64,000 nucleotides of DNA from an uncultured Syntrophobacterales bacterium (GCA_964630405.1 CAZVUC010000050.1:8948-72947); one strand, 5' to 3'; numbered from the stretch's first letter, positions 836 to 63,770 are shown. The notes: generated by a model from the letters alone, not told the origin. Made by a program: numbers and translations.

Positions 836-2134
836 TCAGTGGTTGCTATCGCCGGCCGGAAGCGGCGCGGGCTTTACCGGCCGCCGGATGAGCAGAGTCA
901 GTCCGGCGCACAGGATCTGCACCGCGATGAAGAGGATCAGCGACAGGTCGTAGCTGCCGGTGTAGTCGTAGGGATAGCCGAAGGCGAGGCCGCCGGTGGC
1001 GGCGCAGAGCAGGAGGATCGGCACGCTGAGGCTCCGGACCGTGCCGAGGGATATGCGGCCGAAGTAGTTGGCCCACATGACCTCCTGGAGGACTTGCGCG
1101 CCGCCGAGTCCGGCCCCGTAGAGGAAGAAGGCTACGTAGAGCCAGCGCAACTCGGTGGTCTGCAGGGCAAGGACGAGTCCCGAGGCCTGTATCACGAACA
1201 TCAGCGCCGTGGCCTTGCGGACGCTGACCCGTTCTCCCACGAACCCCCACAGAAGGCCCGATCCGAGCTGGGTCGCGGCGGTGACCGTCTGCACGGAGCC
1301 GGCCCAGACCGGCGAGTAGCCCATGTCGGATATGAACGGGACCAGGTGGAGGTTGAAACCCGCGACCCCCATGTCGACGGTGCTGAAGATGAAGGTGATG
1401 AGCCAGAAGGTCGACGTGCGCATGGCTTCGCGCCGGGTCCAGCTCACGTCGGCGAGCACCGGAGCGCTGCCGGACCGGTCCGAAGCGCCCGGGTCCGCGG
1501 CGGTATAGGGTTCGGAGGCGCCGTCGGGGTGAAGGCCCATGTCTTCCGGGCTGCGCCTCATCCAGACCGCCGCGGGGATCATGATGAGGAAGATCACCAA
1601 GACTCCGAAAAGGATCCACACGTAACGCCAGCCGATGGCAGTGAGGAGGACCGCGGCGACGAGGGCGATGGCGGTCTTGGAGATTCCCTGTCCCAGGTGC
1701 GCGATGGCCACGGCCCGGCCGCGCTTCTTCACGAACCAGCGGGAGATGGTGACGTTGACCACGAAGTAGCACACCAGGGCGTGGCCGATGGACACCGGCC
1801 CCACCCGTATCAGCGCGAATTCCCAGAAATTGCGGGCGTACCCCAGCAGCAGGAAGCCGACGATGGAGATGGCCGCGCCGATGACCATGAGCCAGCGGGC
1901 GCCGTAGCGGTCCAGCAGGGAGCCGATCCACGGCGCCACGCCGGCGTAGCTCACCAGTTCCATGGCGCGCATGAGCGAGAACCTGCCGCGGGAGACGCCG
2001 AATTCCGCGGTGATGGACTTCATCAGCACGCCGAGGGTGCTGGAGAGGTAGAAGGGGCACGCGAGTTGCACCACGAAGCCGGTGCCGACGATGTACCAGC
2101 CGTAGAACAGCCTGGGTCTGGTGGACTTCTGCAT
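836..2134 (-). CDS. MFS transporter, paralog 1 of 3.
   Basis: 432 aa with multiple transmembrane segments. N-terminal motif FYGWYIVG...LSSTLGV. Paralogous to 2153-3469 and 4893-6239. Confidence 0.85.
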   Translation of the reverse strand: MQKSTRPRLFYGWYIVGTGFVVQLACPFYLSSTLGVLMKSITAEFGVSRGRFSLMRAMELVSYAGVAPWIGSLLDRYGARWLMVIGAAISIVGFLLLGYARNFWEFALIRVGPVSIGHALVCYFVVNVTISRWFVKKRGRAVAIAHLGQGISKTAIALVAAVLLTAIGWRYVWILFGVLVIFLIMIPAAVWMRRSPEDMGLHPDGASEPYTAADPGASDRSGSAPVLADVSWTRREAMRTSTFWLITFIFSTVDMGVAGFNLHLVPFISDMGYSPVWAGSVQTVTAATQLGSGLLWGFVGERVSVRKATALMFVIQASGLVLALQTTELRWLYVAFFLYGAGLGGAQVLQEVMWANYFGRISLGTVRSLSVPILLLCAATGGLAFGYPYDYTGSYDLSLILFIAVQILCAGLTLLIRRPVKPAPLPAGDSNH

Positions 2135-2152
2135 CGTTTCCAGCGGGACGGT

Positions 2153-3469
2153 TTATTGGCGGGCCGCTTCGGGCGTTGCCGGGTGCCGCGGCCTGCGTAT
2201 CGTAAGCGTCAGCGCGGACGAGATCAGCAGCATGGTCATGAACAGGAAGAGGGAGATCCTGTAGGACCCGGTGTAGTCGTACACGAAACCGAAGAACGGC
2301 GGTCCGCAGACGCCGCACAACAGCACGACCTGGAGGGCGGCGCCCCGAACGGTGCCGAGGGAGACCCGGCCGAAATAGTTCGCCCACATGACCTCTTCCA
2401 GCACCTGGGCGCCGCCGAGCCCCAGGCCGTAGAAGAAGAACCCGAGGTAGATGGTCGACAGGTCCTGCGCGTTCGCCGCCACGTACAGCCCGGCGGCTTC
2501 CACCAGGAACAGGAACGAGATGACCTTGCGGACGCTGACGCGCTCGCCGACGAAGCCCCACAACAGCCCCGAGGTCGCTTGCGTCCCGGCGATGACGGTC
2601 ATGGTCAGGGCGGCCGGAAACCCGCCGAACCCAAGGTCCGAAACGTAGGAGACCACGTGGAGGTTGAGGCCGGTGATGCCGATGTCCACCATGCCGAATG
2701 CCAGGATGATCAGCCAGAAGGTGGACGTGCGCCGCACTTCCTTCCGGGTCCAGCGGACATCGGGATCCGGTTGGCCCCCGGTCCCCGCCGTCCGGCCTTG
2801 CCCGTCGACCGTGCCGTCCATGGGCTCGAGGGCGGCGTCGCCGTCCGGATGGAGCCCCATGTCTTCCGGGCTCCGCCGCATGAAGACGGCCACCGGGATG
2901 ACCGCCAGCACCACCACCAGCACGCCGAACAGGGTCCACACCTGGCGCCATGCGATGAACGTCAGCAGCCAGCCCACCACCGCGGAGATGGCCACCTTGG
3001 CGACGCCGTGCCCGAGGTGCGAGAGGGCCAGCGCCCGCCCCCGCATCCGGACGAACCACCGGGCCACGGTGACGTTCACCACGAAGTAGCAAACCAGCGC
3101 ATGGCCCACGGCCATCAGGGTCATGCGCACGGACGCGAACTGCCAGAAGGAGTACACCCAGCCCAGCAACAGGAACCCGACGGCCGAAAGGATCGCGCCC
3201 GTGACCATCATGCCGCGTGGGCCGTACTGGTCCAGCTTGGCCCCCACCCAGGGAGCCATGAGGGCGTACAGGAGATGCTCACCGGACCGAAGCAGCGAGA
3301 AGATGCCCCTGGAAACGCCGAGATCGGCGGTAACGGGCTTCAGAAAGACGCTGAGGGTGCTGGAGAGGAAGAAGGCGCAGGAGATGTTGGCCAGAAAGGC
3401 GGCGCCGACGATGTACCAGCCGTAGAAGATTCCCGGGCTTCCGGAACGGTGGGTGGAATCAGGGGTCAC
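2153..3469 (-). CDS. MFS transporter, paralog 2 of 3.
   Basis: 438 aa. Same FYGWYIVG...FLSSTLSVFLKP architecture. Lies 18 nt upstream of paralog 1. Confidence 0.85.
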   Translation of the reverse strand: MTPDSTHRSGSPGIFYGWYIVGAAFLANISCAFFLSSTLSVFLKPVTADLGVSRGIFSLLRSGEHLLYALMAPWVGAKLDQYGPRGMMVTGAILSAVGFLLLGWVYSFWQFASVRMTLMAVGHALVCYFVVNVTVARWFVRMRGRALALSHLGHGVAKVAISAVVGWLLTFIAWRQVWTLFGVLVVVLAVIPVAVFMRRSPEDMGLHPDGDAALEPMDGTVDGQGRTAGTGGQPDPDVRWTRKEVRRTSTFWLIILAFGMVDIGITGLNLHVVSYVSDLGFGGFPAALTMTVIAGTQATSGLLWGFVGERVSVRKVISFLFLVEAAGLYVAANAQDLSTIYLGFFFYGLGLGGAQVLEEVMWANYFGRVSLGTVRGAALQVVLLCGVCGPPFFGFVYDYTGSYRISLFLFMTMLLISSALTLTIRRPRHPATPEAARQ

Positions 3470-3644
3470 GGCGGTCCCGGGCGTCGAAGACGGGCAGTCG
3501 GTTCATACTTCTCTCCTCCGGCAGCGGGTGCGGTGCGTGCGGGCTCGGTGCGTTCAGGAAGACTACTTAACTAGGCAATCGCTCGGTCCGAGTCAATCGA
3601 GTGTCCGGTGTCCCGTCCGGTCAATGAATCGACCGGACAGGACA

Positions 3645-4877
3645 CTAGTCCGGAGCCGGCCACAGCCGCCGGTCGAACCGGCGCATCCAGTCGAGACCGG
3701 TGACCCACACCGCCAGCACCGAGACCAGCAGCAGCGAGTTGGCCACGGTGAACGACACGTAGTAGCTGCCGGTGAGATCGTGCAGCGCGCCTCCCAGCCA
3801 GGCGCCCAGGCCGCCGCCGACGCCCACGCTCATGACCGAGAAACCGAAGATGGTCCCGAACCCCTTGCCGGCGAAGATGTCGGCGGTGATGGCCGAGAGG
3901 ATGACGGCGCGGGAGCCGAAGGCGATGCCGAAGCCGCCGACGTAGACGTAGAGCAGCCAAGGCTGCGAGGTGTCCGCTGCCAGGGTGAGGGCCAGGACGC
4001 CGACGGCCGCGCAGGCGATGTTGAGGGTGTAGGCCGCGGTCTTGGTGAAGGCGTCGGCGATGTAGCCGAAGGCCACGCGTCCGCCGGCGCTGACGAACGC
4101 CATGACGCCGAAGACCCCGGCGGCCCAGATGTGGCTGTAACCGATGTCCACCACGTGGGCGACCTGATGAGTGACGATCAGCATGGTGCCCACCGAGCCC
4201 AGCATCCGGGAGATGAACAGGCTCCAGAACTGTATGCTCCTTAGCGCCAGCGAAGCCGACCACTCGCCGGCAGCGGCGGCGGCCGCCGTCCCTCCCGCGC
4301 TTTGCGGGCTGGGCCGGTAGGTGCTCCACACCAGGGGTATGATCAGGATGAGGATCGCCGCCGCCAGCGCCTGGAACACCCGCGGCCAGCCCCACAGGGA
4401 GATCAGCCCCTGACTGAGGGGCGAGAGGATCAGGGTGCCCACCCCCACCGCTCCGTAGACGATGCCCAGGACGAGACCCCGGCGGGAGGGGAACCACTCC
4501 GACACCACCACCACGTGGGGAATCACGCCGCCGGCCGCGAACCCCAGCGACACCACGACCCCGAAATAGAAATAGAGCTCCCACGCCGTGCTGACCCGGC
4601 TGCACAGGAGCAGGCCGGCGGCCAGGACCACGCTGCCCGCCATCACGACCCGCCGCGGCCCCAGGCGGTCGGTGAGGCGTCCGATGAAGGGCGAAGCGAG
4701 CGCGTCGGTGACCAGGTTTGCCGTCTGAAGCCCGGCGGTGACCGCGCGGCTCCAGTGAAAAGTGTCGAGGAGCGCCACGAAGAAGACGCCGAAGGAGGTG
4801 TGGAGGCCGCGAATGAAGCCGAACGTGAACGAAGCGGCTCCGGCGATGACCCACGGATGGTTGGTTTGGCGCGTCAT
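3645..4877 (-). CDS. MFS transporter of a distinct subfamily from the three paralogs.
   Basis: 410 aa polytopic membrane protein with MFS-like topology and loop motifs (GRLTDRLGPRRV). Confidence 0.8.
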   Translation of the reverse strand: MTRQTNHPWVIAGAASFTFGFIRGLHTSFGVFFVALLDTFHWSRAVTAGLQTANLVTDALASPFIGRLTDRLGPRRVVMAGSVVLAAGLLLCSRVSTAWELYFYFGVVVSLGFAAGGVIPHVVVVSEWFPSRRGLVLGIVYGAVGVGTLILSPLSQGLISLWGWPRVFQALAAAILILIIPLVWSTYRPSPQSAGGTAAAAAAGEWSASLALRSIQFWSLFISRMLGSVGTMLIVTHQVAHVVDIGYSHIWAAGVFGVMAFVSAGGRVAFGYIADAFTKTAAYTLNIACAAVGVLALTLAADTSQPWLLYVYVGGFGIAFGSRAVILSAITADIFAGKGFGTIFGFSVMSVGVGGGLGAWLGGALHDLTGSYYVSFTVANSLLLVSVLAVWVTGLDWMRRFDRRLWPAPD

Positions 4878-4892
4878 GGCGGTTTCGCGGCC

Positions 4893-6239
4893 TCAGTCGA
4901 TCCCGGCCCGACCCGCCGGTTCGGACTTGCGTGGGGGGCGCACGGCCAGGACCAGGAACGCCGACAGCAGCAGGGCGCCGATGAACACGTTGAACGACAG
5001 GAAATAGCTGCCGGTGTAGTCGTGGAAGAAGCCGAAGAAGGGCGGTCCGACGGTCGTGAATATACGGGTGATCATGATACCCAGATTGCGCACCCGGCCC
5101 AGGGAGACGCGGCCGAAGTAGTTGGCCCACAGCAGCTCGCGAATCACCAGGATCCCGCCCAGGCCGAACCCGTAGATGATGAAACCCAGGTAGACCGAGA
5201 CCGGCCCCAGGGGCGCAAGGGCCAGCCCCAGGCCGCACACCTGCAAGAGGAACTGGGCGGCGGCTGCCTTGCGCACGTCGATATGCTCGCCCACAACTCC
5301 CCAAATGAGGTTTCCGGCCATCTGGGTCAGGGACATCGCCCCCATTACGGTGGCGGCGATCTCGGGCGAATAGCCGATGTCCGTAATGTAGGGGTAGATG
5401 TGCAGGTTCAACCCGATGATCCCGAACGTGACCGTGCCGTAGGTGACCACCAGCAGCCAGAACGTGCCGGTCCGGACGGCCTCCCCTCGCGTCCATGCGA
5501 TATCGACCGCGGGCGCCTGGTGGGCTTCCTGTTTCTGAGTCTTGCCCGGGGAAGGCTGATGGGGCGCCAGCGCGCCGTCCGGTTGAAGGCCCATGTCCTC
5601 CGGGCTTCGCCGGACCACCAGGAACGCCGGCAGCACGACCATGGCCAGGGTCAACAGGCCGAACACCATCCAGGTGTTGCGCCATCCCACCAACGCGAAG
5701 AGTCCCACGGCGAGCAGGGGCATGGTCGCCTTGGCGAGGCCGTTTCCGGTGTTGGCGATGGAGATGGCACGGCCCCGCTTGCGGACGAACCAGCGCGAGA
5801 TCATGACGTTGACGACCATGTAGCTCATCAGCGTGTCGCCCACGGTGACGGGGAGCCATCGTATGACCATGAACTGCCAGAACTCCTGGATCTGGCTGAG
5901 CAGGATGAAACCGGCCCCTCCCACCAGCGCTCCGGTCACGATGAGCCATCGGGCTCCGTAACGGTCGATGAGGGGGCCCACCAGGGCCGCGATCACCGAG
6001 GAGAACATGACCTCGCCGCTGCGGATGAACGAGAAGACTCCCCGGGAAATGCCGAACTCGGCCGTGAGGGGTTTCAGAAAGATGCTGAGGGTGCTGGATA
6101 GCGCGAAGGACGAGCCGAGGTAGCAGATGAAGCCGACGCCGACGATGTACCAGCCGTAGAAGATCTTGCGGGTCACTATATCGAGTTGGTTTACTGGTGC
6201 GTCGCGGGAATGGCAACCGGCGGGACACGAACCTGGCAA
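4893..6239 (-). CDS. MFS transporter, paralog 3 of 3. The start is uncertain and may be the internal GTG giving VTRKIFYGWY.
   Basis: IFYGWYIVGVGF...LSSTLSIFLKPLTAEFGISRG is highly similar to paralogs 1 and 2. Lies 15 nt upstream of the 3645-4877 gene. Confidence 0.8.
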   Translation of the reverse strand: MPGSCPAGCHSRDAPVNQLDIVTRKIFYGWYIVGVGFICYLGSSFALSSTLSIFLKPLTAEFGISRGVFSFIRSGEVMFSSVIAALVGPLIDRYGARWLIVTGALVGGAGFILLSQIQEFWQFMVIRWLPVTVGDTLMSYMVVNVMISRWFVRKRGRAISIANTGNGLAKATMPLLAVGLFALVGWRNTWMVFGLLTLAMVVLPAFLVVRRSPEDMGLQPDGALAPHQPSPGKTQKQEAHQAPAVDIAWTRGEAVRTGTFWLLVVTYGTVTFGIIGLNLHIYPYITDIGYSPEIAATVMGAMSLTQMAGNLIWGVVGEHIDVRKAAAAQFLLQVCGLGLALAPLGPVSVYLGFIIYGFGLGGILVIRELLWANYFGRVSLGRVRNLGIMITRIFTTVGPPFFGFFHDYTGSYFLSFNVFIGALLLSAFLVLAVRPPRKSEPAGRAGID

Positions 6240-6398: not shown

Positions 6399-6857
6399 AT
6401 GGAACGGACGGTAGCAGCGATGAAGGAAGACACGAAAGTTACAGCTATTACGGCCCAGGACAAGGAGTCCGGCGACCGCCCGGCTCGGGAGCGCGCAATG
6501 GCCGATGCCTTCGATGCCGTGACGTTGTTCGATGCCGACGGCGTGGACGTGGACCTGTATACCGACACGGTCCAGCGCAAGTCGTCACTGGAACCCGAGA
6601 AGCACCTGCTTCTCGCCATCCTCGAGGACGCCCTCGCCTGTTACCGAAAGAACATCTTTGCCCGGACCGCCAGGAAGCGGACGGTCTATCGGGACGCGGA
6701 GGAATGGATCTTCGCCACCGACGATGACCGTTTCCTCGGCTTCGAGTCCGTTTGCGGAGCGCTGGGTATAGAGCCCAGCTACCTGCGCCGGGGCCTGGTG
6801 GAGTGGAAGAGGCGCAAGGTCAAAGCCAACGCCAACGCTCCCGCAGAAGCGGCGTAG
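6399..6857 (+). CDS. Hypothetical protein of 152 aa with an acidic N-terminus and a basic C-terminus.
   Basis: Clean ORF downstream of a good promoter. Codon usage matches the neighbours. I recognise no domain. Confidence 0.5.
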   Translation: MERTVAAMKEDTKVTAITAQDKESGDRPARERAMADAFDAVTLFDADGVDVDLYTDTVQRKSSLEPEKHLLLAILEDALACYRKNIFARTARKRTVYRDAEEWIFATDDDRFLGFESVCGALGIEPSYLRRGLVEWKRRKVKANANAPAEAA

Positions 6858-6897
6858 GGGCGGCGTTCCGAACCTGCGGCGGCCGCACTTCGCCATT

Positions 6898-6927
6898 GGG
6901 GGGGCGGTTTGAAACCAGCCCCCCGCC
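6898..6927. repeat. GC-rich stem-loop GGGGGGC-GGTTTGAAACCA-GCCCCCC between convergent genes. Member of a REP-like or terminator-like motif family.
   Basis: Shares the GGCGG-TTTCARACC-CCGCC core with the motifs at 39471 and 42892. Confidence 0.4.
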
Positions 6928-6931
6928 GCCG

Positions 6932-8578
6932 CTACCGGCTGGATTTCTTGAACTCCGTCCGGAGTTCGGACGCGAGCCGCCCGAGGCGGTAGGTCTTCCA
7001 GTCGATGAACCTCGCGTAGCCTGCCAGCCGCGGGTGCACCGCGGCAATCTGACGCCACATCTCCTGCGTGATCGAGCGGTAGTCGGGATGCCCTTGCGGC
7101 ATGGTCCGCAGCTCGCCGATGTGCACCGCCTCCCGCAGGTTCATCTTCATGTACCATCGCGTGCGATACGCGAACGGCACCACGTACTGCGCCTCCCGCG
7201 GATGGTCCCCACGGATCCGTTGGTGGAGTTCGGCGGCGCGGTCCATGCAGCGGCGGTACTCGCCGTCGAAGCCCGCCTCGGCGATCTCCGGCGGGGTGTC
7301 GTAGCCGTGGGCGGTGGTGAAGTCCTGCCGCTCCTGGCTCAGCAGGCGATGCCGCTGGAGGTCGCGGTAGGCGCCGAGGTTGCCGATGATGTCGAAGGTG
7401 TAATAGACCTGCTCCAGCGCGCGCCCGGGCTTCTCGCGCCGGTGTCGCCGGCCCTTCATGTAGGCGTCGAGCACCGCCTGCTTCCGTTCATCCGGCAGCC
7501 GCGCCGCCAGCTCCCGCAACTGTGACAAAGTGTGCGTCGCGTGGGGATACAGGATGGCGGCGATGACCCTCTCTTCCGCCTGCCCGTCGTGATCCACCAA
7601 CGTCACGCTCGGACCTTCCCGCGCCCGTCCGGTCACCAGCTCTTCCGCCAGCGCGCGGGCGTGGCTGAACGTCTCCGACAGGTACGGGCTCGGCTGGGCC
7701 CGCTTCACGAACGAGGGGATCAGCGTGTCCAGCTCCCGGCCCATGGCGGCGCCGAGGTCGCGGAGCTCCGCGAGGTCGCTGGAATGGCACTTGGACAACA
7801 GGTATTCGAAGGCCTGTCCCACCCCGAACAGCCCGACGTTGGTGCGGGTCGCCGCGGGCAGATAGCCCCTCAGGATGTCGCAGGCATGGGCCCGTACCGT
7901 GGACCGGTACGCGGTCTCCGCCCAACGGGCGAGCTTCTCGTCCTGGCGGGCTTCGGCGTAGGTGACGGCGTCGCCGGTCCCGGGGTGCCGCAGTTCCGTT
8001 TCCTCCAGCGGAACGGACTTCCGGACGTGCTCGATCATGGGGTCCATCTGCCGCGAGTAGGTGTCGAACAGGAGCTCCATGAGCTCCAGGTAGGCCTCGC
8101 CGTGTCTCGACCGGGCAAGGGTCGGCTCGACGAAGAACAGGTGCCGGCCGGAGGCGTCCTTGCGGTCGAAACGCACGTAACGGGTGGACTTCTCCAGCGG
8201 CGCCATGCCGATCCGCGCGTCCTCGAGAGCCTTGGCGGCCACGTTGGAGATGTCCTCGCAGGCGACGTGGGCGCCGCCGAGCTGGGCCACCGAGTCGTCG
8301 CCGTATCCGATGAGCACCCGCTCGTAGAAGGCCCGTGCCCGGCGCACCGCGGGGTCGTCGCGGCCGGCCGCCGCCGGGGTGTCGAGGGCGGCGGAGAGGT
8401 CCTCGTCACGGAGAAACTCGTCCAGAAACGTGCGCCGGAGGTCCTTGGCCGAGCGGCTGTAGCGCGAGAAGAGCGCTCCGGCCACCTCTTGCGGCAGCCT
8501 GAGGCCGAAGACCGGCCGGTCCACGTTGGTGAAGAACGGCGCGAGTCGCTCGCGTTCCGCCGGAGTGAAGTTTTCCAT
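6932..8578 (-). CDS. thyX: FAD-dependent thymidylate synthase ThyX-like, tandem two-domain form (548 aa).
   Basis: C-terminal domain has the ThyX signature YTFDIIGNLGAYRDLQRHRLLSQERQ, matching the canonical [25 protein letters not shown]. The true start is the ATG at 8578. The 1300-aa ORF in the track is an upstream artefact. Confidence 0.6.
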   Translation of the reverse strand: MENFTPAERERLAPFFTNVDRPVFGLRLPQEVAGALFSRYSRSAKDLRRTFLDEFLRDEDLSAALDTPAAAGRDDPAVRRARAFYERVLIGYGDDSVAQLGGAHVACEDISNVAAKALEDARIGMAPLEKSTRYVRFDRKDASGRHLFFVEPTLARSRHGEAYLELMELLFDTYSRQMDPMIEHVRKSVPLEETELRHPGTGDAVTYAEARQDEKLARWAETAYRSTVRAHACDILRGYLPAATRTNVGLFGVGQAFEYLLSKCHSSDLAELRDLGAAMGRELDTLIPSFVKRAQPSPYLSETFSHARALAEELVTGRAREGPSVTLVDHDGQAEERVIAAILYPHATHTLSQLRELAARLPDERKQAVLDAYMKGRRHRREKPGRALEQVYYTFDIIGNLGAYRDLQRHRLLSQERQDFTTAHGYDTPPEIAEAGFDGEYRRCMDRAAELHQRIRGDHPREAQYVVPFAYRTRWYMKMNLREAVHIGELRTMPQGHPDYRSITQEMWRQIAAVHPRLAGYARFIDWKTYRLGRLASELRTEFKKSSR

Positions 8579-47756: not shown

Positions 47757-48467
47757 ATGATGACGATCGCATTGGACGCGGCGGCGGGCGCCCTCCCCGC
47801 GAGCCGCGGCGTGTCACGCTTCCCTGGTTGGATTGCGGCGGTCTTCTGCGCCGCCCTGTTGCTGCCGTTGCCGGGTCCCCGCGCGCAGGAAGCCGCGAAC
47901 ATCGTCCGGGAAGTGCAGCGTCGCTACGACGCCACGCGGGACTACAGCGCCGACTTCCGGCAGACCACCGAGTACCGCACCCTCAACCGGCGCATCGAAG
48001 GCAAGGGCCGGGTCTACTTCAGCAAACCGGCGAAGATGCTGTGGCGCTACGAGGACGCTGACGGACAGTTCGTCTTGTCCGACGGGCGCGCCCTCTACTT
48101 CTATCAGCCGGCCGAACGGCAGGTGATCAAGACCGCCCTCGGGTCGGTGTTCCGCTCGGACCTTCCGCTTTCCTTCCTGCTGGGCGTCGGCGATCTCGAC
48201 CGGGATTTCCGGGCAGAGTTGACGGCCTCCACTCCCGACGCCCACGTGCTGAAGCTCTTTCCCCGAAAAGCCAATACGGGCGTGACCGAGATCCAGCTCT
48301 CCGTGGACCCGGACAGCCACGACATCCGACAGGTCCTCATCGAGGATGCCGCGGGCAACGGTTGGACCTTCCGCTTCGACAACGTCCGCCACGGGGCAGG
48401 GCTGGATCCGGCGTTGTTCGAGCTGAAAGCGCCGCAAGGTGTCGATATCGTTGAGTTTGGGTCTTAG
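47757..48467 (+). CDS. lolA: Outer-membrane lipoprotein carrier protein LolA.
   Basis: Signal peptide. LolA fold motifs. Conserved ftsK-lolA synteny. Confidence 0.8.
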   Translation: MMTIALDAAAGALPASRGVSRFPGWIAAVFCAALLLPLPGPRAQEAANIVREVQRRYDATRDYSADFRQTTEYRTLNRRIEGKGRVYFSKPAKMLWRYEDADGQFVLSDGRALYFYQPAERQVIKTALGSVFRSDLPLSFLLGVGDLDRDFRAELTASTPDAHVLKLFPRKANTGVTEIQLSVDPDSHDIRQVLIEDAAGNGWTFRFDNVRHGAGLDPALFELKAPQGVDIVEFGS

Positions 48468-48627
48468 TGTCGTGTCCCACACAATGCTTTACCGATCTGC
48501 TTGTCTTTCTTGTCGTCGGCTGCGTTGCTCTTCCTCGCGTGGTGCCCGCCACTGCTCGTCATCGCGCCTTGCCGACAACAAGAAATCCTGCGCATCCCGG
48601 TAAAGCATTGTGTGGGACACGACACTA
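48465..48627 (-). ncRNA. Nested-hairpin repeat element, copy A. Candidate structured RNA on the minus strand.
   Basis: Perfect 30-bp outer inverted repeat (48465-48494 with 48598-48627). It encloses a ~100-nt core with an inner 15-bp stem (48506-48520 with 48571-85). The single inner-stem mismatch is C/A on the plus strand, which is G-U on the minus strand. The core is about 90% identical to copy B. The element starts at the TAG stop of lolA. Confidence 0.65.
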
Positions 48628-48731
48628 GGGCCGCGTCTCCTTCGGCAAGCCCCCACGGTGGTGGCCGCGTCTCTCGTATTGACTCCGTCTCGAAATAGTG
48701 GTGAATTGTGTCTCTTCCAGGAGACACGACC

Positions 48732-60463: not shown

Positions 60464-60694
60464 ATGAGTTCGCTACACATTCGAGCGATAGACCCCGCAA
60501 TACTCGACGCGCTGAAACGTTTGGCACGCAGTCATCACCGATCTCTCCAAGGGGAGTTGCACGCGATTCTCGAACGAGCTGCACGTTTGGCTCCCCCCGA
60601 ACAGGGAGGTCGGCCGTTGCGCCTGGTGACGGTCGCGTCCGACCATGCAGCATCGTGGCGCAGGGAAGAGATCTATGACGCCGACGGCCGGTGA
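60464..60694 (+). CDS. vapB: Ribbon-helix-helix antitoxin (VapB/FitA-like).
   Basis: Reads IRAIDPAILDALKRLARSHHRSLQGELHAILERA. 76 aa. Overlaps the PIN gene. Confidence 0.7.
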   Translation: MSSLHIRAIDPAILDALKRLARSHHRSLQGELHAILERAARLAPPEQGGRPLRLVTVASDHAASWRREEIYDADGR

Positions 60695-61151
60695 TGTCCT
60701 GTTCGTCGACACGAGCGTGTTGTTGATCGCGACCGACGCCTCGCGGAGGTGGCACGAGGAAGCGATGCGGCTGTTCACCGATGCTGACTCCCGTGGAGTT
60801 CACCTTGCGGTGAGCGGCCAGGTCTTCCGGGAGTATCTGGTGGTGGCAACCCGCCCGGGGGAAGCAAACGGCCTCGGCATGAAGGTAGAGGATGCGATCG
60901 CCAACGTAAACGAGTTCGTGCGCCTTACGCATTCCTACGACGAAACGGAAAAGGTGGCGCGCCGACTGCGGCAACTTGCACTGACCTACGGCCTGCACGG
61001 CAAGGTGCTCCATGACGCCAATATCGTCGCCACAATGACGGTCAACGATATTTCCGTCCTGGTGACGCAGAACCTGGACGACTTTGCCCGGTTCGATGAG
61101 ATAGAGGGCGTCGCGCTGGACGAGGTTTCGCTGGATGGGGGTGGGCCATGA
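60675..61151 (+). CDS. vapC: PIN-domain toxin VapC.
   Basis: Reads VLFVDTSVLL...D...NLDDF, which gives the acidic PIN residues. 158 aa from the ATG at 60675. Confidence 0.75.
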   Translation: MTPTAGDVLFVDTSVLLIATDASRRWHEEAMRLFTDADSRGVHLAVSGQVFREYLVVATRPGEANGLGMKVEDAIANVNEFVRLTHSYDETEKVARRLRQLALTYGLHGKVLHDANIVATMTVNDISVLVTQNLDDFARFDEIEGVALDEVSLDGGGP

Positions 61152-62326
61152 CACGTTCGGAGTTGGTCCGTCGCCGGCTGCAGTCGGGCCGTCCATCGCG
61201 CCGCCTCGCGGCCGCGGCTCTCGCCCTGGCCCTCGGCTGGTCCGGGATTGCTGCCGCGGACACGGTGGAACAGACCGAGCGACATGCGGTGCGCGTGCGC
61301 ATCCTGACCCGCGGGCTCGAACGCCCGTGGTCGCTGGCCTTCCTTCCGGACGGACGGATGCTGGTCACCGAGCGGGCCGGCCGGCTGCGCTACGTCGCAG
61401 CCGACGGCACGCTGGATCCGACTCCCATCACCGGGCTCCCCGAAGCGGTGGCGGAGAGGCGGCAGGGCGGCCTGCACGACGTCGTGTTGCACCCCCGGTT
61501 CTCGCGGAACCGCCTCGTCTATCTCGCCTATGCCGGCAAGGGCGCGGGGGGCTACGGCACCGAGCTCGCCCGGGGGCGGCTTGACGGCCACCGCCTCACC
61601 GACGTGCAGGTCCTGTTCCGGGCCTTGCCCAAGTCGTGGGGCGGCCGCCACTTCGGCGGCCGGGTGGTGTTCGACGGCAAGGGGCACGTGTTCCTGACCC
61701 TGGGGGACCGGGGCAACCGTCCGAGCGCGCAGGACCTGGGCGACCACGCGGGTTCGATGATCCGCCTCACCGAGGACGGCGGCGTGCCGAAGGACAACCC
61801 CTACCTGTCCGTGGTCGGCGCGAGGCCGGAGATCTACACCCTCGGCAACCGCAACGTGCAGGGCGCGGCCATCCATCCGCGGACCGGCGAGCTCTGGACC
61901 CACGAGCACGGGCCGCAGGGCGGCGACGAGATCAACATCATCCGGGCCGGCGTCAACTACGGGTGGCCGGTGATCACCTACGGCAGGAACTACGGGATCG
62001 GCACGCGCATCGGCGAGGGGACCCACGGGGAAGGCATGGCCCAGCCCCTGCACCAGTGGACGCCGTCCATCGCGCCCTCGGGCATGGCGTTCTATGACGG
62101 CGACAAGTTCCCCCGCTGGCGCGGCAACCTGCTGGTAGGCGCGCTCGCGTTCCGCCTGCTCGCGCGGATCGAGCTTGACGGAGAGCGGGTCGTCCGCGAA
62201 GAGCGGATTCTGAAGGGGGTCATCGGCCGCATCCGCGATGTCCGGGTGGGCCCCGACGGATACGTCTACCTTCTGAGCGACGAGCAACCGGGCGTGCTCG
62301 CGCGCCTCGAGCCCGCCGGCGGCTAG
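61148..62326 (+). CDS. PQQ-dependent soluble sugar (aldose) dehydrogenase, YliI/Asd-like.
   Basis: Signal peptide. Beta-propeller motifs (PWSLAFLPDG...TLGDRG...NYGWP). Confidence 0.85.
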   Translation: MTRSELVRRRLQSGRPSRRLAAAALALALGWSGIAAADTVEQTERHAVRVRILTRGLERPWSLAFLPDGRMLVTERAGRLRYVAADGTLDPTPITGLPEAVAERRQGGLHDVVLHPRFSRNRLVYLAYAGKGAGGYGTELARGRLDGHRLTDVQVLFRALPKSWGGRHFGGRVVFDGKGHVFLTLGDRGNRPSAQDLGDHAGSMIRLTEDGGVPKDNPYLSVVGARPEIYTLGNRNVQGAAIHPRTGELWTHEHGPQGGDEINIIRAGVNYGWPVITYGRNYGIGTRIGEGTHGEGMAQPLHQWTPSIAPSGMAFYDGDKFPRWRGNLLVGALAFRLLARIELDGERVVREERILKGVIGRIRDVRVGPDGYVYLLSDEQPGVLARLEPAGG

Positions 62327-62487
62327 GAGCCTGTCCGGGTAATACGTCGGCGAATCTGCTGGTCCTTCTTGCCGTCGGCCGCGTTGCTCCTCCTCGCGTG
62401 GGGGTGGCCACTGCTCGTCGTCGCGCCTTGCCGACAACAAGAAGTCCTGCGCATCTTCACCAACGTATTACCCGGACAGGCTCCTAG
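62323..62487 (-). ncRNA. Nested-hairpin repeat element, copy B. Candidate structured RNA on the minus strand.
   Basis: 31-bp outer inverted repeat (62323-62353 with 62457-62487). Its two mismatches are both C/A on the plus strand, which is G-U on the minus strand. Inner 15-bp stem 62365-79 with 62430-44 has two C/A mismatches on the plus strand. Relative to copy A it carries a compensatory T:A to C:G change at the stem base. The CTAG ends supply the TAG stops of both flanking convergent genes. Confidence 0.65.
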
Positions 62488-63770
62488 TCCGCACCCCCCT
62501 CGGCTCTCAGCGAATCCAGCGCCTCCTCCACGAGTTTGCGCCGCAACGCCTTCTCCTCGTCGGGCGGCAGGCTGGCGTCTCCGGCCACGTGGATGATGCC
62601 GGTTCCCAACACGACACGGTTGGAGCCCACCATCTTGGCGATGGGCAGGGCGGAGGTCAGTTGCACGACCGGGACGCCGGCCTTTTCGAGCTCGGTGGTG
62701 ATCGCAGCGCCGCTGCGAGTGCTGGTGCCTCACGTGGAGGTGAGGATGACGGCGTCGACCCCCTCGCGCTTGACTTTCTCGGCCATCTCCCGGCCCAGCC
62801 GGCGGGTGTTGGAGAGGGGGTTGGACAGGCCGGACGTGGACAGGAACTCTCCGTGTATCTTGCCCACGGCGCCCTCTTTCTCCAGTTGCCTGAGGGCGTC
62901 GAGGGGGACGAGGCGGTCGGGGTCGGCCTGCACGAAGCGCGGGTCGTAGCCGCCGTGGGAGATCTCGTAGTCATCGCCCGCGAGGTCGTCGTCGCCGGAG
63001 ATGTCGTAGGCGCCCCAGCGCGTGGCGGCCATGCCTTCGATATTGTCCGGATTGCCCTTGGGCACCAAGCCTCCGTCGGTGATGAGCATCACCGTGGCCT
63101 TGGAGATGTCGTCCACGCCCCTGGGCTTGGCCACCGGCTGGAACGAGGTGACGGGCATCTCGGTGTCGAACGGCTGGTCCTGGGCCTTGGCCAGGACCAT
63201 GTCCACCAGGCGCTCGGCCGAGGACTTGTCGACGAACCGGTCCCGTATCAGCCCCCGGGTCAGGTATCCCTCTTCTTCGGGCAGGCCGACGGCCTCTCCC
63301 GCCGCCAGCTTCCGGGCCAGTCCGGCCATGCGCTCCACCACCTCCTTCATCTTCGCCGCGTTCTTTCCGGAGTCGATGATGTAGAGGCCTTCCCGGTAGA
63401 GGTCCACGCCCGGGTTCTCCTCGTGCATGGCGGTGACGGCCGGAATGCCGAGCTCCGTCTGCACCGCGCTGCACAAGGCGCCCGCGGCCATGCCGTAGCG
63501 GCCGGCGTCGAAGCACGGGCCGGCCACGAACAGGTCCGCCTCCACGCCCCGGACATGTTCGAGGACCGCGGCTGTCAGCTCCTCCTGATGCTCGACAGCG
63601 TAGTTGTCGCCGCAGACCAGGGCCTTGACGACGGTGGCCCCGTCGCCGAGGCTCCGTTCCAGCAGGCGGCCGGGGCCGACGGCGCCCTCGACCTCCCGCA
63701 GCGGGCTCCCGGCCTGTTCCTCGCCGCCGATTCCTCCGAAAAACTGGTTGAGGTAGTGGACGATCCTCAT
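62484..63770 (-). CDS. GrdB-family protein (glycine/sarcosine/betaine reductase selenoprotein B-like). About 428 aa if the in-frame TGA at 62730-62732 is read as selenocysteine.
   Basis: N-terminus MRIVHYLNQFFGGIGGEE matches the GrdB N-terminus. Shine-Dalgarno AAGGAGG 8 nt upstream. The 346-aa ORF ends at a TGA. The next 81 codons continue in frame with no stop, and they include the track's 62484..62666 ORF. Context reads ILTST-U-GTSTRSGA, which I compare to UxxCxxC from recalled GrdB literature. Confidence 0.6.

Follow-up and report, generated by a model that had tools for sequence, protein, structure and literature searches.

TAG-to-TAG hairpins in Candidatus Binatia: a probable IS630-type MITE inserted at the TA of CTAG

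The stretch of DNA analysed here, 64,000 nucleotides in length and hereafter called the window, carries a nested hairpin (copy B) between the convergent genes of a PQQ-dependent sugar dehydrogenase (GSDH) and a GrdB-like protein, and a related hairpin (copy A) at the 3′ end of lolA (Table 1). The outer arms of copy B (62323-62359 and 62451-62487) are 37 nt each and show 89% complementarity; as a preliminary description of this DNA had stated, they have CTAG at either end. Its statements on the flanking genes also held: the left CTAG supplies the TAG (62324-26) with which the dehydrogenase ORF terminates, the right CTAG supplies the minus-strand stop of the GrdB-like gene (CTA at 62484-86, in frame), and the 165-bp hairpin spans the interval from stop to stop. 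The 25-nt arm tip of copy B occurs exactly twice in the window, compared to zero occurrences expected from shuffles, and the fold has a z-score of -9.8 on the plus strand and -12.4 on the minus strand relative to shuffled sequence. The arm mismatches are C.A on the plus strand, equivalent to G.U on the minus strand, and the left-arm tip is a rare variant, GGAGCCTGTCC, common to one other copy (L009).

The minus-strand ORF that ends at 62484-86 is in frame with a GRDB-like ORF (62730..63770) via a TGA at 62730-32, and the motif around this TGA is TST-U-GTSTR. The two frames are one selenoprotein gene, in which the in-frame TGA presumably specifies selenocysteine. Relatives have this gene annotated as pieces of 346 and 58 aa, and L120 has it as a single 428-aa protein. 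Pfam searches found GRDB (PF07355) and GSDH (PF07995) in orthologues of copy B's two neighbor genes; an exact-sequence look-up with the window's own GSDH protein gave no record. At 60464-61151, immediately 5′ of the dehydrogenase gene, a PIN-domain ORF is overlapped by a small ORF resembling an antitoxin, and a PIN gene occupies the equivalent place in L117 and L124. At 900-6200 the window also contains three consecutive paralogous genes of ~1.3 kb (repeat families D1-D5, 60-78% identical).

Table 1. Coordinates in the window of the two hairpin copies, their parts and the adjoining genes.
Feature	Position	Strand	Remarks
lolA	47757..48467	+	stop TAG 48465-67 remade from duplicated TA and the element's first G
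Copy A with target context	48464..48628		T-TA-[48467-48625]-TA-G, within TA of the lolA TAG stop
GSDH (PQQ-dependent sugar dehydrogenase) gene	61148..62326	+	PF07995; junction provides stop
Copy B with target context	62323..62487		C-TA-[159-bp element]-TA-G; fits the 165-column family consensus
Left TA of target-site duplication	62324..62325		with G62326 forms the TAG stop of the GSDH gene
Left arm, copy B	62326..62359		terminal inverted repeat and inner variable stem
Conserved core, copy B	62354..62455		inner stem, internal loop, apical hairpin
Right arm, copy B	62451..62484		complementary to left arm
Right TA of duplication	62485..62486		with C62484 forms CTA, the TAG stop of the GrdB-like gene (-)
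GrdB-like selenoprotein gene	62484..63770	-	PF07355; TGA 62730-32 in frame; stop at right junction

Copies A and B have only their inner ~102 nt in common (89% identical, in the same orientation), and their outer arms are unrelated sequences. Copy A had been described as beginning in the same way as copy B; it does start at the lolA TAG, but its left end reads TTAG rather than CTAG. We followed lolA orthologues with 82-86% identity to their contigs (L126, L128, and L129) and found empty sites of the kind that the preliminary description had suggested looking for. In these three loci, the 3′ end of lolA reads ...GGCTCTTAG|GGTCGCG..., with the variant TCCTAG|GCTCGCG in L129, and dksA lies 100-103 nt past lolA with no element between. 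The junction in the window reads ...GGGTCT-TA-[GTGTCG...CGACAC]-TA-GGGCCGCG..., and the change from the empty site TCTTAGGG to the filled TCTTAG...CTAGGG is a duplication limited to TA. The lolA loci are a textbook filled/empty pair, with the element in the TA of the lolA stop and the TA duplicated. The stop codon was remade because the element starts with G.

A genome-collection search with a pattern from the right half of the core, in which 14 bases were fixed and transitions permitted elsewhere, matched at least 116 loci, nearly all of them in Candidatus Binatia MAGs and complete chromosomes, with many per genome; a scan of viral contigs with the core pattern gave 0 matches. BLAST with the two cores yielded 128 copies within loci among the matches listed, and 104 full copies among them were aligned. 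This copy set is biased by the search pattern, and the copies are related by ancestry, so that counts are not independent events. Across the 104 listed copies, the flanks have zero information content, with a sharp rise at C-T-A-G...C-T-A-G, 165 columns apart. The element is accordingly 159 bp long with a TA on each side, and its terminal inverted repeats start with GTGTSSTGTC. The base inside each TA is element-derived (left G in 102/104 aligned copies, right C in 104/104), and the base outside is flank-like with a preference (left C 90 and T 11, right G 96 and A 5). The target is thus a TA within YTAR, which is CTAG in 90% of the listed copies; TA flanks were found for 86 of the 108 listed copies that were searched for them. 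A 4-bp duplication is excluded by the copies whose left end is TTAG, since their right end is CTAG; where the right end is CTAA, the left one is CTAG or TTAG. The first of the two explanations offered in the preliminary description, insertion at CTAG, is therefore upheld in a refined form: the element goes into the TA of a YTAR site, in most cases CTAG, with an IS630-like duplication of that TA. Under this model, whose reading of copy B's left TA was demonstrated on copy A, both copy B stop codons consist of the duplicated target TA and one element base (G62326 and C62484).

The same data bear on a different classification, in which the element would be a MITE of the IS5 type with a 4-bp CTAG duplication, like MITEPsy1, or else a REP/BIME or integron attC-like palindrome. 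The sequence is indeed palindromic, and its CTAG ends are as reported for MITEPsy1 (PMC3189936). However, TTAG...CTAG and CTAG...CTAA pairs are not identical 4-bp repeats, the lolA empty site shows a TA-only duplication, the matching autonomous elements belong to the IS630 family and not to IS5, and the size and terminal repeats of the element are unlike those of REP or attC. We give this classification almost no chance, and its 4-bp duplication model was discarded as refuted by the TTAG/CTAG end pairs and the lolA empty site.

Several other arrangements were seen around the copies. Tandem or abutting insertions (MITE-MITE and MITE-IS) with one common CTAG occur at L051:5956-6281, at L072:6355-7672, and in the right flanks of L098, L100, and L078, and they fit target regeneration at both element ends. 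Mini-palindromes of ~20 nt lie beside MITEs in the right flanks of L011 (TAGTGTCGCGTCCCGCGACACTAG), L031, and L092; they consist of two terminal-repeat tips between TAs and may be footprints or minimal elements. Another short palindromic repeat (GCGAAGCGAAGTCGAAGGGCG-like or CCCCGGG hairpins) lies inside the MITE cores of L022 and L112 and at L119:5260-5320. Its presence in some cores and elsewhere suggests a second repeat family in these genomes.

Autonomous elements with matching ends are present in the same hosts. A 1.16-kb IS at L115:3577-4737, bounded by C-TA-GTGTCCTGTCC... and, as reverse complement, ...GGTGTCTGGTTAATTCG followed by TA-G, has terminal repeats that match the MITE and encodes a 372-aa ORF. 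Against NCBIfam NF033545 ('IS630 family transposase', cut-off 100), the product reaches 260 bits, and it has matches to Pfam DDE_3 and HTH domains as well. The right end of this IS, GTGTGGTGTCTGGTTAATTCG, has the same sequence as the arms of the MITE found at this locus. A second IS630-family element, in L072, encodes a transposase with 48% identity and adjoins a MITE, with which it has one CTAG in common; its right end, GTGTCGCGTCCCGCAAATA, is the arm type of L004 and L065 from the same chromosome. The transposase ORFs (L115:3618-4736 and L072:~6580-7672) reach the last IS base and end in ...CAC-TAG, with stops made up of the duplicated target TA and the flanking G/A of the YTAR target. IS630-family elements are known to duplicate TA (PMC2170065), and the passage of that paper that cites Tenzen & Ohtsubo 1991 gives CTAG as the preferred target of IS630.

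The element is small, non-autonomous, and multi-copy (at least 116 loci), contains no credible ORF, and is absent at eight orthologous loci; it inserts at TA and duplicates it in the IS630/Tc1-mariner manner, as the filled and empty lolA sites show, and its terminal inverted repeats match those of an autonomous IS630-family element in the same host. It has every testable defining feature of an IS630/Tc1-mariner-type MITE. We therefore consider it highly probable (roughly 0.9) that the hairpin is an IS630-type MITE in Ca. Binatia that inserts at the TA of CTAG, and that its TAG-stop ends are a by-product of this choice rather than the mark of a purpose-built terminator. A literature search for Binatia repeats or MITEs returned nothing relevant and no description of this element. 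Judged by the searchable literature, it is a previously undescribed IS630-type MITE with an unusual, inverted conservation pattern.

Given the matching terminal repeats, IS630-family transposases would move the element in trans by cut-and-paste. Insertion of an element that starts with G and ends with C into C-TA-G recreates CTAG on both sides, so that a TAG stop on either strand survives the insertion. The long hairpin is a property of the element itself, and any effect on transcript 3′ ends would be secondary.

The locus of copy B has a more complex history than that of copy A. As had been proposed for this site, we compared orthologous loci and found five GSDH/GrdB loci without the element (L117, L120, L121, L122, and L124; GSDH identity 86-92%). 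At the GrdB stop of L117 a CTAG stands free (ccgCTAGtccgc), with the same sequence as the right junction in the window. The dehydrogenase gene of each of the five loci has its own TGA or TAA straight after ...EPAGG (...EPAGS in L124), and between the two genes lie 63-69 nt of spacer (280 nt in L124) that the copy B locus lacks. Copy B is therefore no straightforward insertion between abutting stops: element-free loci exist, but the relatives carry this spacer of 63-280 nt, and the stop-to-stop geometry did not arise in one insertion event. In a metagenome scan for a copy B empty site with abutting stops, 11 matches were obtained, all by chance and none at the GSDH/GrdB locus. Copy B probably went into the CTAG of the GrdB stop, which is free in L117, and a secondary loss would then have removed the spacer of 63-69 nt along with the TGA/TAA with which the dehydrogenase gene originally ended. 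Such a loss could have come about by recombination between two copies, one at each YTAR stop, or by microhomology deletion. The dehydrogenase gene now takes its stop codon from the left junction. In two further relatives the GSDH/GrdB spacer contains RNA_ligase and AAA_15 genes (L118:3680-6179 and L119:3674-5393), and DUF4011, AAA_11, AAA_12, and MTES_1575 lie near these spacers, which together resemble a variable, possibly defence-related island.

The structure of the element was analyzed in 85 distinct copies among the matches listed, aligned in minus-strand orientation. Standard pairs fill 98.8% of cells, compared to 31-49% when the partners are slid, and 32 of 60 pairs show compensatory double changes (755 cells versus 238 in shuffles, with 0 of 500 shuffles reaching the observed value). 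The covariation comes almost entirely from the outer helix; helix 3, at the center of the core, is invariant, and covariation neither supports nor contradicts it. Three parts make up the core: its inner stem contains three pairs prone to wobble, its internal loop does not vary in sequence, and its apical hairpin (GTGG/CCAC) encloses a loop that does vary. The invariant internal loop carries a direct repeat of 13-14 nt (TGCTCTTCCTCGCG / TGCTCGTCATCGCG), both at 62380-62432 and in the family consensus; its units flank the apical hairpin and may form a candidate protein-binding platform.

The departures from Watson-Crick pairing are strikingly one-sided. On the plus strand, the listed copies have 272 C.A/A.C pairs versus 50 G.T/T.G pairs, and on the minus strand the three inner-stem pairs occur only as CG, UG, and UA, never as CA. 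These pairs toggle among the three states within single arm types, which indicates that the transitions happened repeatedly. The minus strand folds better in 102 of the 104 listed copies, with means of -100.7 versus -88.7 kcal/mol. Flanking genes, which for all context statistics were called heuristically by a crude open-frame and GC3 filter, lie more often on the element's minus strand (83 versus 52, p ~0.01, a modest bias among the listed copies), and co-directional contexts are -- in 26 listed cases and ++ in 11. The wobble polarity is equal in ++ and -- contexts among the listed copies and is thus a property of the element lineage; it does not reflect copy-by-copy adaptation to the host transcript. 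An origin of the polarity in local transcription, by in-situ adaptation or transcription-associated mutation, was rejected on the same ground.

The second explanation offered in the preliminary description was that a role as a bidirectional terminator or 3′-end stability element accounts for the position of the hairpin. In this account the host keeps it for that function, and function rather than target choice produces the stop-to-stop placement. The hairpin is very stable in both directions, 98.8% of its cells are paired with 32 covarying pairs (listed copies), a coding-like ORF runs into the element in 45 + 28 cases among the listed copies, and REP- or MITE-type hairpins are known to affect mRNA stability (PMC3184786). 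However, we detected no intrinsic-terminator-like site on either strand of copy A or copy B and no U-tract, with flanks that read CTAGTCCGCACC and CTAGCCGCCGGC. Nor is the association with stop codons in excess of what the target offers. The terminal TAG is the stop of a coding-like ORF in 32 of the 85 listed copies (38%), and the stop-to-stop arrangement was found in only two of them, the window's copy B and L007. Across 950 kb of fetched Binatia loci, CTAG is depleted ~15-fold, with 207 free sites versus 3028 expected from base composition; 146 free sites lie outside coding-like ORFs, and 56 of these (38%) are stop codons. Since 38% of the copies and 38% of the free non-coding CTAGs are at stops, the stop association equals target availability. 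Some listed copies are located upstream of genes or between divergent ones, the eight orthologous loci function without the element, and the strand polarity of the structure is independent of local gene direction. We thus did not adopt the terminator or stability role as the reason for the placement, and regard it as very unlikely. Under the preferred reading, that of an IS630-type MITE, placement follows from target choice and survival of harmless insertions: with CTAG depleted and many of the remaining sites being TAG stops, insertions at gene ends would be both frequent and harmless.

Some features of the element are not expected of a purely selfish MITE, namely the identity contrast between core and arms, the one-strand wobble, and the orientation bias. 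Among the listed copies, mean pairwise identity is 93% in the core (half outside the search pattern) but 49% for the variable segments of the arms and 81% over the nine bases at the termini. There are at least 25 arm types, mutually unrelated yet each perfectly self-complementary, with left and right arms matched within each copy, and at least eight of them occur together in one chromosome (OZ220712.1). The arm types look like single ends of various IS630 relatives, and a copy has the same type on both sides even when the two ends of its parent IS differ. One listed copy, L010, is chimeric. The notion that the core was inserted into pre-existing palindromes was dropped, given that the arm tips are IS630 terminal repeats flanked by TA.

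One explanation of the matched arms is a DNA-level process, either template-switch correction of a quasipalindrome during replication or arm-to-arm conversion, instead of selection for RNA pairing. It is established for E. coli that template switching can perfect quasipalindromes. Such a process agrees with the IRL-IRL or IRR-IRR arms of copies whose parent IS has unlike ends, and with the existence of the chimeric copy. In addition, the flanking TA is changed complementarily to CTGG...CCAG (TG on one side, CA on the other) in L029, L068, L043, and L017; by our count these are four cases among the listed copies versus ~0.5 expected, and they point to arm-to-arm copying or strong stem selection. 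A DNA-level process leaves unaccounted for, however, the persistence of G.U-type mismatches on one strand at high frequency and the conservation of a non-complementary internal loop. As the full explanation of arm complementarity we consider it possible, though somewhat unlikely; quasipalindrome template switching is in any case a candidate process for fitting one core with two copies of one IS end.

Alternatively, and compatibly with MITE identity, core and stem could act as an RNA module or as a strand-specific single-stranded intermediate that is selected at the level of the element lineage and rides on interchangeable IS630 ends, for example as a regulatory or antisense RNA for the IS630 transposase or as a binding platform for a host factor. 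The core identity of 93% versus 49% in the arms, the invariant internal loop, the excess of C.A/A.C over G.T/T.G (272 versus 50, plus strand) with three core pairs limited to CG/UG/UA, the better minus-strand fold in 102 of 104 listed copies, the polarity unrelated to local context, and the 26 -- versus 11 ++ contexts all agree with this proposal. By contrast, a search of both window copies with the covariance models of Rfam 15 gave only chance-level matches (E >= 0.13), and a sigma-70-like promoter consensus scan found no site at either copy. Helix 3 of the core, being invariant, gives no covariation evidence, shared ancestry of the copies inflates the counts, and recent spread could partly account for the high core identity. 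We hold such a module to be rather unlikely. More doubtful still, and offered as speculation, is the specific proposal that a ~100-nt invariant core with one-strand G.U, repeatedly refitted with different IS630 ends, amounts to a functional strand-specific RNA or single-stranded module (e.g. an IS630-transposase regulator or a host-factor platform) for which the ends serve as the vehicle, rather than to an inert deletion derivative of a single IS.

Conservation of the core might also be explained by a peptide of ~43 aa encoded on the minus strand (MRRIFCCRQGAMTSSG...). The reading frame is open up to the terminal TAG in 66 of the 85 listed copies, and its last codons are common to the transposase C-terminus ...RINQTPH*. 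But 28 of the 85 listed copies have no ATG, open frames through the whole element are as common on the other strand (57 versus 63), and variation tracks stem pairing instead of codon positions. The peptide was rejected on these grounds, and we judge it extremely improbable.

Many long hairpins found at the ends of genes in Ca. Binatia are explained by the MITE family, which is relevant to genome annotation, and TAG stops in these genomes are often remade by a transposon junction. The family provides a natural example of how a palindromic CTAG/TA target and G...C element ends lead to neutral insertion in stop codons, with the targets regenerated for tandem insertions. The invariant core, the swappable covarying ends, and the one-strand wobble make it a testable case for RNA-level functions of MITEs versus template-switch palindrome perfection.

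Among known systems, IS630/ISY100 of the IS630-Tc1-mariner group resembles the Binatia element in TA duplication, CTAG preference, and the terminal repeats of co-resident IS630 elements. Unlike these ISs, the element is only 159 bp long and without a transposase, and its interior is unrelated to an IS, since the core gave BLAST matches to MITE copies only among the matches listed. Correia/NEMIS of Neisseria and RUP of Streptococcus pneumoniae are TA-flanked MITEs of ~100-160 bp with ~25-nt terminal repeats that lie at gene ends and are co-transcribed as long RNA hairpins; the Correia/NEMIS hairpin is processed by RNase III and has an IHF site in its center. Going by anatomy, they appear to be the closest counterparts of the Binatia element, in which inspection by eye revealed no IHF-like site. 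There is no sequence relation between them, and the Binatia element differs in having variable terminal repeats and a conserved interior. MITEPsy1 of Pseudomonas syringae has CTAG ends with a 4-nt duplication and is derived from the IS5 family (PMC3189936). Like the Binatia element it is a small MITE that inserts at CTAG/YTAA, whereas the Binatia element duplicates TA only and has partners from the IS630 family. With respect to RNA-level compensation, the closest systems are ERIC and the Bacillus cereus group repeat bcr1, which are mobile, intergenic, and ~125-155 bp long and in which compensatory changes keep the RNA-level structure (PMC3184786). bcr1 has 5-bp direct repeats and no known link to IS630, and the Binatia element is set apart from both bcr1 and ERIC by combining a single core with at least 25 arm types and by a wobble polarity confined to one strand.
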